IMG/VR virus record: IMGVR_UViG_3300013094_000021 | DNA length: 64,000 nucleotides | Strand: one strand, 5' to 3' | From: a virus | Lineage: Duplodnaviria; Heunggongvirae; Uroviricota; Caudoviricetes | Shown: positions 56,362 through 56,978 of the stretch, piece after piece | Layout of the letters: each line of letters starts with the position of its first letter | Numbering within the stretch: the stretch's first letter is position 1 | Notes under the pieces: model-generated | What the model saw: the letters and a program-made list of their open reading frames with translations, nothing else | Told to the model about the DNA's origin: nothing | The model's database searches: none | Translations under genes and position numbers: made by a program

Positions 56362-56817
56362 ATGAAACGACTAACCTTAAAGCAGGAAATGGAACTCTCG
56401 AAAATCGAGCGGTGCAACCGAGTGCTGGACGGCGCAACGCGCGGACTGGAGGCTGTTTTCGCCGATAAAGCCAAGGTTGAAATTGTTGACAATGAAAGCA
56501 TTTTGATTGACGGATGGATTTATCTAACGCCAACCGTTGAAATTCCGGCGGGCCGGACAATCAAATTTGGCGGCAAAAACCACGTTGTCAATTATAGTGA
56601 GGAACAGCCTCTTTGGATGTTAAGCACAGCCCGCTTCATCCCGCAAACTCGCTGGGAGCCTGAGGATGTTGACATCACCGATGCTGGAACTTTCCATTTC
56701 GGCGATGCAATGCACCTTGCAATTACTTTAATTGCTAAAAATATTTACAATCAATTCTGTGAAAGCGAAAGTGAAAAAGAAATGGATGAAATGGAAAAAG
56801 ATTTAGAAAATATTTGA
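56362..56817 (+). CDS. hypothetical protein
   Basis: 151-aa ORF, leaderless behind consensus promoter. Confidence 0.4.
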   Translation: MKRLTLKQEMELSKIERCNRVLDGATRGLEAVFADKAKVEIVDNESILIDGWIYLTPTVEIPAGRTIKFGGKNHVVNYSEEQPLWMLSTARFIPQTRWEPEDVDITDAGTFHFGDAMHLAITLIAKNIYNQFCESESEKEMDEMEKDLENI

Positions 56818-56842
56818 CAAATAAAATAATTTCTTCATAATT
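56814..56842 (+). promoter_or_regulatory. consensus promoter directly upstream of tRNA-like RNA
   Basis: tttgacaaataaaataatttcttcataat. Confidence 0.5.
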
Positions 56843-56850
56843 TAATTGTT

Positions 56851-56978
56851 GAGTGCGTGGCGAAATGCAAAGACGCAAGCTGGAGATGCTACTTGTAGCG
56901 GAAACCAGATAGTGTGCGACCTGAAATCGCGAGCAGAACTCGAAACACTTGCAGGTTCAAATCCTGCCGCACTTAACA
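56851..56978 (+). ncRNA. 128-nt tRNA-like structured RNA (acceptor-like stem + canonical T-arm flanking a ~100-nt branched insert); candidate Y-RNA-like / tRNA-mimic
   Basis: 5' gagtgcg pairs 3' cgcactt; T-arm gcagg-TTCAAAT-cctgc with G53-C61; internal hairpins gctac-ttg-gtagc, ctgg...ccag, agtgt...acact; no CCA, no 7-nt anticodon loop. Confidence 0.45.

Follow-up and report, generated by a model that had tools for sequence, protein, structure and literature searches.

The tRNA-framed RNA gene and its promoter

We detected an RNA gene of 125 nt at positions 56851-56975 (+ strand) of the window, the whole 64,000-nt stretch of viral DNA analysed here. Judged from its sequence, it is a real promoter-driven gene built on a tRNA frame that lost its anticodon loop. 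The explanation that we favour, with about as much belief as doubt, is a stable non-decoding RNA derived from a phage class-II-type tRNA and matured by tRNA-processing enzymes, comparable to the species 1 RNA of phage T4. An earlier note on this DNA had already described a promoter-driven tRNA mimic in which an acceptor stem and a T-arm occur without an anticodon loop, and this description holds.

A check of the sequence located all the features named in that note. The sigma-70-type promoter TTGACA-16-CATAAT (56814-56841) agrees with the consensus at 11 of 12 positions, stands directly ahead of the RNA and drives it. About 60 stereotyped promoters are present in the window, and that of the element is one of them. 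The distance from the -10 hexamer to G56851 is 9 nt, equal to the spacing at the tRNA-Arg gene of the phage (promoter at 48080, tRNA start at 48118), with which the element also agrees in anatomy, and the 5' leader of the element is probably about 3 nt long.

All parts of the element lie on the + strand. The 5' strand of the acceptor stem, GAGUGCG (56851-56857), pairs with the 3' strand CGCACUU (56968-56974) over 7 bp, including G1.U72, and is followed by U8-G9 and a class-II (Leu-type) D-arm, GCG-AAAUGCAAAGA-CGC (56858-56876), that the earlier note had overlooked; the consensus of this arm in the Leu-type family described below is GCG-AAAUUGGUAGA-CGC. The D-loop AAAUGCAAAGA lacks G18G19, so that the canonical tRNA elbow may not form; the D-loop of the phage tRNA-Arg likewise lacks GG. 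The homologue of the anticodon arm is an extended hairpin without a 7-nt anticodon loop, CUGG/AGA/UGCUA-CUUG-UAGCG/GAAA/CCAG (56878-56910). It is followed by a giant variable-arm domain (56911-56949), with a predicted stem AGUGU/ACACU around the hairpins GCGA-CCUGAAA-UCGC and GAG-CAGAA-CUC. The canonical T-arm GCAGG-UUCAAAU-CCUGC (56951-56967) directly adjoins the 3' acceptor strand, and the exact motif GGTTCRANTCC occurs in the window only in this T-arm and in two tRNAs. All pairs are intact in the acceptor and T stems (12 of 12) and in the D-stem (3 of 3).

The nested pairs ctgg/ccag, gctac/gtagc and agtgt/acact that had been noted between the two ends are present; the first two appear in the minimum-free-energy fold, in which positions 56911-56949 are paired slightly differently. 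Also overlooked was a second acceptor-like 5' strand, GTGTGCG, at 56912. The RNA ends with the discriminator A56975, and its tail (56976-56978) reads ACA in place of CCA. The 3' end is thus AACAAAAA, one substitution away from an encoded CCA, and the 3' end ACCAATTT is common to the phage's own tRNAs and to the homologues B and L137. The reported lack of an anticodon loop was confirmed by a script scan of the element, which found no 5-bp anticodon stem with a 7-nt loop, U33 and a purine at position 37.

Homologues of the element

We retrieved homologues from JGI metagenomes and IMG/VR with a 20-mer of the D-arm, a selection that is independent of pairing. In these homologues the acceptor and T stems are kept by compensatory changes, which answers positively the covariation check that the earlier note had proposed for this pairing. 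The same note had considered that the region might encode a conserved small protein; no conserved ORF was found that spans the element, B and L137.

The closest homologue, group B, is represented by six contigs (L132, L133, L134, L136, L138, and L139). Its acceptor stem AAGUGCG/CGCACUU is nearly the element's own, and its D-arm and T-loop are identical to those of the element. Group B has a plain anticodon arm, UUGGU-UUCAUGA-GCCAA at nt 28, with a 7-nt loop and the anticodon CAU, a 38-nt variable insertion and an encoded ACCA, and it passes the Rfam tRNA model (39.5 bits, threshold 29). In L137, the acceptor stem GAGCAUG/CGUGCUC covaries and the tail is ACCA; the anticodon arm is extended, with a 3x4 internal loop and a distal helix, in the same layout as in the window copy. 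The basal CUGG/CCAG of the window copy aligns with UUGG/CCAA of B and L137, and its variable domain matches their 38-40-nt variable domains in position and size. This lineage has the Leu-type D-arm, the 38-40-nt variable domain and, in the closest relative, the CAU anticodon. The searches turned up no close variant of the window copy.

Because group B scores as a tRNA(CAU), the window copy appears to be a tRNA derivative whose anticodon arm turned into a longer hairpin. Selection on the structure is suggested since the stems are intact despite the loss of decoding and since the same arm extension is found in a second lineage (L137). As an alternative anticodon arm we considered GCGA-CCUGAAA-UCGC, whose loop is one substitution from CUUGAAA, presumably the loop of tRNA-Ser(UGA). 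This candidate was rejected, as the anticodon stems of B and L137 align instead with the basal stem of the first hairpin.

The element has the 7-bp acceptor, the 5-bp T stem with a UUCRANY loop and the U8 of a tRNA. With class-II tRNAs (Leu, Ser, Tyr) and with non-canonical tRNAs that have a long variable arm, such as allo-tRNAs (PMC5389517), it shares the 7/5 acceptor/T branch, U8, the 3-bp Leu-type D-stem and the discriminator A, and in both a structured arm separates the anticodon stem from the T stem. It differs from them in that the window copy has no 7-nt anticodon loop, G18G19 or CCA and falls below the Rfam and ARAGORN thresholds. The variable domain is also branched and 38-40 nt long, whereas known class-II variable arms have about 20 nt.

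Chance expectation

When the window was block-shuffled 200 times, 45 of the shuffles (22%) contained a TTCRANY T-arm with a perfect 7-bp acceptor 55-220 nt upstream, and one further composite of this kind is present in the window (9191-9344). The folding z-score of the element is -1.5. Taken alone, the composite of acceptor and T-arm is therefore weak evidence, and the case for the element is built on the promoter spacing, on the homologues found by the D-arm with their compensatory changes, and on a large family that shares the frame. Two independent assemblies, JGI 3300013093 and Logan SRR6476446, contain the element with exactly the same sequence.

A virus-enriched family with the same frame

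We defined a family by a 7/7 in-register acceptor, U8-G9, a GCG...CGC D-stem, a 5-bp T stem with GGUUCRANUCC and a middle of 55-85 nt. The pattern GTGGCGAA-N75-105-GGTTCRANTCC has at least 89 distinct matches in IMG/VR. Among the 89 matches listed, 44 have a 7/7 acceptor in register and none has a perfect one when the register is offset by 3, 6 or 9 nt either way; in cellular genomes the acceptor is perfect in only about 5 of about 105 pattern matches. These family members were chosen on pairing, and the window element, B and L137 were not. The window element has the family frame and, after its D-arm, no canonical anticodon arm. Such an arm directly follows the D-arm in none of the listed family members and only in homologue B, while four subgroups of the family have such a hairpin elsewhere in the middle. 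An IMG/VR scan for tRNA genes ending in ACCAATTT returned almost solely canonical tRNAs. By the shares of perfect frames among viral and cellular matches, tRNA-framed RNAs without an anticodon loop appear to be common in, and specific to, viruses, and a non-exhaustive literature search gave no description of such a class.

The family members are located in tRNA arrays or in short intergenic spacers, where many lie a few nt past a stop codon and 3-25 nt ahead of the next ATG. No protein family recurs as a neighbour across the family loci, and a local search for antisense targets of the hypervariable middles gave antisense matches no longer than the sense-strand control. An RtcB homologue is encoded at the locus of L100, a pattern match that is not among the 44.

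Proposed maturation and role

In the explanation that we favour, the element's own early-type promoter would give a transcript whose 5' leader measures about 3 nt, and the intact acceptor/T-arm minihelix of this RNA would be a substrate for the tRNA-maturation enzymes of the host. Cleavage by RNase P would set the 5' end at G56851; at the 3' end, an endonuclease or exonuclease would remove what follows A56975, and CCA might then be added. The product would be a stable RNA of about 125 nt, and the same cuts would free the downstream small-ORF mRNA. With a longer irregular hairpin in place of the anticodon loop and no encoded CCA left, the element cannot decode. Its tRNA frame would most likely serve as a stable chassis that presents the two expanded arms as binding surfaces, and the RNA may act as a decoy or sponge for a tRNA-binding factor of the host or phage. 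The lack of a recurring neighbour family and of a local antisense target counts against a role in trans.

The nearest likeness is T4 species 1 RNA (rnaC, NC_000866 70908-71046). In the folds of both, a terminal stem formed by the 5' and 3' ends is combined with an adjacent T-arm and long internal hairpins, and there is no anticodon. Both are phage-encoded RNAs of 125-140 nt; in rnaC, too, no gap separates the canonical T-arm CCGGG-UUCGAAU-CCCGG from the 3' strand, a pair of long hairpins stands where a tRNA has its anticodon and variable region, and the tail is ACA-like. The likeness described here is one of architecture; rnaC has two U.U mismatches in its terminal stem and no Leu-type D-arm. 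By annotation rnaC lies within the T4 tRNA cluster, from whose precursor it is processed, whereas the element has its own promoter and lies 8.7 kb from the two tRNA genes of the phage (at about 48 kb).

Counted against this explanation are the shuffle rate of 22%, the z-score of -1.5, losses of the kind expected in a pseudogene and a slot that is not conserved. The neighbouring upstream gene (151 aa) has four homologues in related contigs, and in these the downstream slot holds other content. Megablast and blastn searches against the INPHARED phages gave no relatives, only T-arm-sized matches, and IMG/VR searches with the 151-aa protein, its family alignment, the UvrD helicase and the exact 3' 24-mer found nothing.

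The element could also be pictured as a decaying tRNA(CAU)-like pseudogene that is drifting, with a promoter that now serves only the small ORFs downstream. This we consider unlikely. It would suit the apparently functional tRNA that is the closest homologue, the lost anticodon loop, AACA where the relatives and the phage tRNAs have ACCA, G1.U72 where B has A1-U72, and the slot that related contigs do not conserve. Drift does not account well for the fact that all 15 pairs named above are intact, for the 5-bp hairpin, itself well formed, that stands in place of the anticodon region on a basal stem that was kept, or for L137, which independently has the extended-arm layout and has kept its CCA. 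Dozens of viral relatives also keep a perfect frame without an anticodon loop.

Downstream of the RNA are two ORFs on the + strand without promoters of their own, encoding 24 aa (56998-57072) and 80 aa (57082-57324). No terminator was found between the RNA and these ORFs, which presumably are co-transcribed with it across an A-rich spacer. Homology searches with the 80-aa protein returned only the protein itself. The element might act in cis as punctuation, in the manner of a t-element, with cuts by RNase P and RNase Z giving the ORFs at 56998 and 57082 a defined A-rich 5' end, in a genome whose other genes are nearly all leaderless. The promoter-less ORFs with no terminator ahead of them would agree with such a device, as would the many family members that lie just past a stop codon and 3-25 nt ahead of the next ATG. 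The t-elements of plant mitochondria are an established precedent of tRNA-like processing signals, in which a tRNA-like fold in an mRNA precursor could set mRNA ends via RNase P and RNase Z. We nevertheless give this reading a low probability. t-elements are minimal acceptor/T mimics, and an acceptor/T minihelix would suffice for the task; the element has a full D-arm besides, and its two elaborate expanded arms are left unexplained. In addition, the gene that follows homologue B has a separate promoter. Punctuation in cis and a stable non-decoding RNA are compatible and do not exclude each other.

Candidates for the partner RNA of Rsr

The window encodes RtcB and a TROVE/vWA Rsr (rsr, 27379-28686). 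The main inference of the earlier note was that the element is a strong candidate for the Y-RNA-like partner of Rsr; location, motif, topology and model tests all speak against this, and the element is probably not the partner RNA of the Ro60-like protein of the phage. The YrlA candidates in the literature are encoded no more than 4 kb from rsr and on its strand (PMC4201824); the element shares the strand but lies 29.5 kb downstream of rsr. Its stretch GGCGAAAUG does not match the motif GNCGAAN0-1G, as two bases, not 0-1, separate GAA from G, and corresponds to the U8-R9-G10-C11 consensus of the Leu-type D-arm. Its parts follow one another as in a tRNA (acceptor, D, middle, T, acceptor), whereas YrlA is permuted (T, acceptor-like stem, D); a canonical permuted YrlA is present upstream of rsr in the relative L140 (2640-2770). 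The Rfam Y-RNA and YrlA models gave no match in the element.

A better candidate, judged from sequence and covariation, is likely to be a small Y-RNA module in the promoter-driven leader directly upstream of rsr, GUCG-U-GG-CGAAG...CGCUUAUU-CC-CGAC (27303-27367, + strand). This leader has GGCGAAG, a match to GNCGAAN0-1G, 11 nt past the -10 hexamer. The motif occurs 40 times on the + strand of the window, and only the copy at 27308 is at the 5' end of a transcript. The design of the leader recurs in eight elements that immediately precede rsr on contigs of related phages. Across the rsr-proximal modules, 86.8% of cells are paired versus 59.7% in shuffles (0 of 500 shuffles as good), and 11 pairs have changed on both sides. 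A covariance model built from nine rsr-proximal modules, with the window leader in the training set, matches the window only at 27304-27366 (66.9 bits) and gave no match in the element at E<=10 with filters off.

It is improbable that the element is a second, Yrn1-like Y RNA bound by Rsr, in which the terminal stem and the U-GGCGAA after it would form the Ro60 site and the T-arm would supply the tRNA-like module. Y RNAs (YrlA, YrlB, and Yrn1) are tRNA mimics with a T-arm, and the arms of Yrn1 are described in tRNA-like order, as in the element (PMC4201824). RtcB and Rsr are both encoded in the window, and nt 6-14 of the element, CGUGGCGAA, equal the start of the rsr leader, and the two share the layout of terminal stem, U and GGCGAA. 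The rsr-proximal module has no tRNA-like domain, whereas Chen et al. 2014 (PMC4201824) report one or more tRNA-like Y RNAs in each species. An rsr homologue is found near one of the 44 listed family loci, L043, where two family members lie 0.4-0.9 kb upstream of it. However, the 9-mer CGUGGCGAA is the D-arm consensus of the whole Leu-type family, the conserved 3' strand CGCUUGUUCC is missing from the element, and no Rsr was seen on the contigs of homologue B. The rarity of rsr at the family loci, the distance and motif failure described above and the lack of matches to the Y-module model and Rfam likewise disagree with this reading.

tRNA introns, tmRNA and attP

ARAGORN with default settings called no tRNA in the element, and there was no Rfam match at gathering thresholds. 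The best match to the tRNA model (RF00005) is partial (56912-56975), with 17.8 bits (E=0.34) against a threshold of 29 bits. The checks with Rfam tRNA and Y-RNA models that the earlier note had suggested thus came out negative, as did an ARAGORN tmRNA search of the element (-m), even with lowered thresholds. The element does resemble the tRNA-like domain of tmRNA in that its ends form an acceptor next to a T-arm, the D region is reduced and no anticodon arm is present. It differs in having G3-C70, not G3.U70, no pseudoknots and no tag ORF, and in being only 125 nt long.

The earlier note had also mentioned an intron-containing tRNA relic. The relic part of this proposal leads in the right direction, since group B is a tRNA(CAU) that carries a giant variable domain; the intron part does not, for lack of a canonical loop and of a consistent anticodon. 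We regard it as very improbable that the element is a functional tRNA with a small unconventional intron that is excised by an endonuclease and resealed by the phage RtcB. The presence of RtcB in the window invites the idea, ARAGORN with lowered thresholds in intron mode forces a 'tRNA-Ala(tgc), 29-nt intron', and L067 (IMG/VR) resembles a tRNA-Leu(UAA) whose anticodon loop contains a 39-nt hairpin. Yet no excision yields a canonical loop, and removal of the distal hairpin gives AGAGAAA with G33. Bulge-helix-bulge geometry is absent, 2585 deletion variants gave many mutually inconsistent anticodons, and the intron calls of ARAGORN are inconsistent across the family too. No splicing-endonuclease domain was detected among the 20 proteins scanned.

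That the element is an attP site with the 3' portion of a tRNA gene from a host has a next to negligible probability: the T-arm and the acceptor 3' strand are the segment that tRNA-targeting integrases duplicate, and the second acceptor-like strand GTGTGCG at 56912 hints at past recombination, but neither 185,579 species genomes nor IMG/VR contain an exact copy of the 24-mer GCAGGTTCAAATCCTGCCGCACTT, the 5' half is complete with a D-arm and a dedicated promoter, no integrase was found among the proteins scanned, and the genome resembles that of a large virulent phage.

Implications for phage tRNA-like RNAs

These results shift the role of likely Rsr partner to the small Y-RNA module of the rsr leader, a module that related phages conserve. 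As for the element, phages have been known to encode stable tRNA-like RNAs ever since T4 species 1 and 2. We tentatively propose that the element and at least 44 IMG/VR relatives may belong to an undescribed, virus-enriched class of tRNA-framed RNAs, in which a class-II (Leu-type) chassis, processed, stabilised and perhaps aminoacylated by tRNA enzymes of the host, would display hypervariable modules that act in trans. One freshwater lineage of this class would have passed from the decoding homologue B to the non-decoding window copy and L137. A non-decoding derivative can here be traced back along a clear evolutionary path to a scoring tRNA that has CAU and a giant variable domain, and about half of the listed viral pattern matches are perfect frames without an anticodon loop, versus about 5% in cellular genomes. 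Concrete sequences are now at hand with which to test maturation (RNase P, CCA), aminoacylation and partner proteins. If the proposal is true, these RNAs would be tRNA scaffolds that arose in nature; they might, for instance, serve as decoys or sponges for factors in tRNA-directed defence or modification.

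A promoter-driven RNA with a tRNA frame

The window is a phage-like region of 30-40% G+C with nearly all genes on the plus strand and about 60 stereotyped, near-identical promoters (TTGACAA...CTTTATTAT or TCATAAT), one per gene (e.g., at 53900, 54878, and 57347). The ATG mostly lies 5-7 nt past the -10 hexamer, so most window mRNAs appear leaderless; transcripts that are not leaderless frequently start with TTGT(C/T)G. The promoter at 56814-56841 (+; TTGACA-16-CATAAT, 11 of 12 consensus positions) precedes a 125-nt element (56851-56975, +) whose start, GAGTGCG, is 9 nt past the -10 hexamer. 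This spacing is the same as that from promoter 48080 to the phage tRNA-Arg (ACTTTTGTC followed by GGGCC for tRNA-Arg, TTAATTGTT followed by GAGTG for the element).

The element has a 7-bp acceptor stem including G1.U72 (GAGTGCG from 56851 with CGCACTT at 56968-56974), a textbook T-arm directly 5' of the acceptor 3' strand (GCAGG-TTCAAAT-CCTGC), and the discriminator A56975, the tail being ACA. The earlier note had described the promoter, acceptor-like stem, and T-arm, and all lie in the sequence where it placed them, together with its hairpins ctgg/ccag, gctac/gtagc, and agtgt/acact; the absence of a 7-nt anticodon loop and of CCA is likewise borne out. It had overlooked a class-II Leu-type D-arm at element nt 8-26 (U8-G9, then GCG-AAAUGCAAAGA-CGC).

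The only tRNAs called in the window by ARAGORN or by Rfam at curated thresholds are tRNA-Met (47967) and tRNA-Arg (48118), and neither tool calls the element. In permissive mode, Rfam gives only a partial tRNA alignment (17.8 bits) via a second acceptor-like strand, GTGTGCG at 56912. This strand (56912-56918) forms 6 of 7 pairs with CGCACTT and is followed by GAAAU, an echo of element nt 1-16; the repeat may be the trace of an internal duplication. The loop CCUGAAA near 56912 is one substitution from CUUGAAA, which we take to be the anticodon loop of tRNA-Ser(UGA). Like the element, the phage tRNA-Arg(UCU) (48118-48193) has no G18G19 (D-loop AAAUUGAAUA); its T-loop, UUUGAUU, is atypical, and it reaches only 45 bits on the Rfam tRNA model.

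Taken alone, the acceptor and T-arm pattern of the element barely exceeds chance: in 45 of 200 window shuffles, a TTCRANY T-arm occurs with a perfect 7-bp acceptor lying 55-220 nt upstream, one further composite of this kind occurs in the window at 9191, and the folding-energy z-score of the element is -1.5. Two independent assemblies carry the element without a difference. The evidence for a real, evolved structure comes from its homologues.

Homologues retrieved through the D-arm

Four homologues of the upstream 151-aa gene (55-63% identity) are each followed by differing sequence; no homologue was found for the downstream 80-aa gene, and INPHARED and protein-seeded IMG/VR searches returned no relatives. 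Seeding with the D-arm 20-mer GTGGCGAAATGCAAAGACGC matched seven JGI metagenome contigs and one IMG/VR contig. Six contigs (group B) share the 5' part AAGUGCG-UG-GCGAAAUGCAAAGACGC-C-UUGGU-UUCAUGA-GCCAA-G, then a 38-nt domain closed by CUAUAC/GUAUAG and the 3' part U-GCAAG-UUCAAAU-CUUGU-CGCACUU-A-CCA; they reach 39.5 bits on the Rfam tRNA model (threshold 29), with anticodon CAU and a 38-nt variable-region insertion. Contig L137 has a covarying acceptor (GAGCAUG/CGUGCUC), the D-arm of the window copy and group B, an encoded ACCA, a GGCC/GGCC variable domain, and an extended anticodon arm (UUGG / AAU / CCC-UUGUUAU-GGG / UGAA / CCAA). At the anticodon position, the window copy has CUGG / AGA / UGCUA-CUUG-UAGCG / GAAA / CCAG, with the same basal stem as L137 (C-G changed to U-A), the same 3x4 internal loop, and a distal helix, but no 7-nt loop.

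Because the D-arm alone was used for retrieval, the perfect, covarying acceptor and T stems of the window copy, group B, and L137 are independent evidence. The phage's own tRNAs, group B, and L137 end in ACCAATTT and the element in AACAAAAA, with an encoded CCA one substitution away. The element thus derives from a lineage-specific tRNA that had a giant variable domain; its anticodon loop and CCA are gone, and all of its stems remain.

Noncoding tracts were also seen nearby and in related contigs. In region 55443-56330, no gene is called in the roughly 380-500 nt after each of the promoters 55443 and 55827; 55860-56270 folds far better than shuffles (z=-3.94, 0/100 as good) with several GCAA-type loops, about 56160-56260 is homologous to L005 1400-1520, and no Rfam family matched. 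The stretch is a candidate large structured ncRNA beside the tRNA-like gene. In the related contigs L003 (2750-3620) and L005 (790-1776), a homologue of the 56362-56817 gene precedes a consensus promoter and a noncoding stretch of about 900 nt; the two stretches have blocks in common and no Rfam match.

A wider family of viral Leu-type RNAs

The pattern GTGGCGAA-N75-105-GGTTCRANTCC gave at least 89 distinct matches in IMG/VR. Of the 89 listed, 44 pair all 7 acceptor positions in the exact tRNA register; with the register shifted by 3, 6, or 9 nt in either direction, none does. In 185,579 species genomes, the same pattern gave in-register acceptors in only about 5 of about 105 matches, several of them tRNA-Leu behind a duplicated 5' fragment; comparing this with 44/89 of the viral matches listed, viral contigs are thus strongly enriched in this class. 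Across 43 aligned sequences, the acceptor and T stems covary extensively, but the register control is the fair statistic, as 39 IMG/VR rows were selected on pairing.

Among the matches listed, family RNAs are 110-135 nt long with U8-G9, a D-arm GCG-AAAUUGGUAGA-CGC, mostly a discriminator A, and often a CAA tail; their hypervariable middles (55-85 nt) mostly form one or two extended hairpins, and a canonical anticodon arm is absent from the canonical position in all of them. A large subgroup of these matches shares the acceptor AGUCAGG/CCUGACU. Family loci lie in phage tRNA arrays, beside normal tRNA-Leu genes, or in short intergenic spacers. ARAGORN intron mode gave mutually inconsistent calls across the family, and guilt by association with genes neighbouring family loci was negative.

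Several variants were observed. A viral subgroup with acceptor AAGCAAG (L107 1308-1422, L034, L055, and L072) contains a pair of T-arm-like hairpins as well as two alternative acceptor 3' strands. Its first 75 nt are called tRNA-Thr(GGU) by ARAGORN; next come a second anticodon-like hairpin (UGY) and then a better T-arm and acceptor. The first hairpin carries compensatory changes between contigs. L067 (597-718) encodes an apparent tRNA-Leu(UAA) with a normal Leu variable arm and a 39-nt hairpin inside the anticodon loop (GCGGA-CUUAA...AA-UCCGU), an insert too small to be a group I intron and lacking a bulge-helix-bulge motif. Cellular examples occur in L183 (Burkholderiales MAG, minus strand from 6256) and L234 (from 2982); one, a Leu-framed tRNA, combines the loop CUUGGGG (anticodon UGG) with a variable arm of about 43 nt, and the other is a Leu-framed RNA in which a long hairpin replaces the anticodon loop.

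Proposed role

We give roughly even chances to the element being a non-decoding, tRNA-derived stable RNA. Maturation by RNase P and at the 3' end would proceed via the acceptor/T minihelix, the RNA would be stable, and the downstream small-ORF mRNA would be released; the two expanded arms may be binding surfaces for a role in trans. A purely cis-acting role as punctuation, one of the two main rivals, is improbable. The other, pseudogene decay, is equally improbable. The closest functional analogue of a stable RNA of this kind is T4 species 1 RNA (rnaC), the likeness being one of layout (terminal stem, adjacent T-arm, two long hairpins).

The rsr leader as a probable Y RNA

The window encodes RtcB (26071-27258) and the Ro60-like protein Rsr (TROVE/vWA, 27379-28686), which adjoin NAMPT and a 261-aa unknown protein (23772-28686), each with its own promoter; the block looks like RNA repair plus NAD salvage, as expected of a counter-defence module. 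Chen et al. 2014 (PMC4201824) describe YrlA RNAs as lying on the same strand as rsr within about 4 kb, with GNCGAAN0-1G near the 5' end and a permuted tRNA-like domain in the interior. The element shows none of these three features, which speaks against the suggestion in the earlier note that it is the Y-RNA partner of Rsr.

The most likely cognate Y RNA is the rsr leader module. Promoter 27269 gives an rsr leader of about 80 nt whose module (27303-27367) starts GUCG-U-GG-CGAAG and ends CGCUUAUU-CC-CGAC, with a terminal stem, bulged U, GG/CC pair, CGAAG motif, conserved apical UUACUUC, and 3' CGCUUAUUCC. The closest Rsr homologues (57-66% identity; phage contigs L008, L010, L140, and L142) have one to four leader-type modules directly upstream of rsr. 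Among three simple Y modules of L140, upstream of an rsr 60% identical to that of the window, sits a canonical YrlA (2640-2770; T-arm CAUCGG-UUCGAUC-CCGAUA, acceptor-like stem-loop, D-arm AGCUCAGUGGUAGAGC). Covariation is strong across nine aligned modules: 86.8% of cells are paired vs 59.7% in shuffles and 11 pairs changed on both sides, which 0 of 500 shuffles reach. The sole window match of the nine-module covariance model is 27304-27366, itself in the training set; at the element it finds nothing, even at E<=10 with filters off. Leader and element have the 9-mer CGUGGCGAA in common, which is the U8-R9-G10-C11 D-arm consensus found throughout the Leu-type family.

That the element serves as a tRNA-like Y RNA of the phage Rsr is a weak residual possibility, favoured by two observations: no tRNA-like Y RNA was seen next to rsr in the window phage, and an rsr homologue in L043 has two family members a short way upstream. 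The L043 pair (2530-3045, minus) has AGUCAGG/CCUGACU acceptors and differing D-arms, flanks a small ORF, and lies inside a 24-tRNA array, 0.4-0.9 kb upstream of the same-strand rsr homologue. Other readings were rejected: an intron-containing tRNA (no excision gives a canonical loop, and bulge-helix-bulge geometry is absent), attP (the 3' 24-mer matched nothing in either genomes or IMG/VR), a small protein (no ORF is kept across the element, group B, and L137, and two annotations call no gene there), and, with negative results, a tmRNA and a local antisense regulator.

Relation to known RNAs

A non-exhaustive literature search found no description of this tRNA-framed class. The known kinds to which the element relates are phage tRNA-like stable RNAs and non-canonical class-II tRNAs, of which it is a variant. 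Of note are the family's size and viral enrichment, and the transition from tRNA to tRNA-like RNA that can be seen in it.
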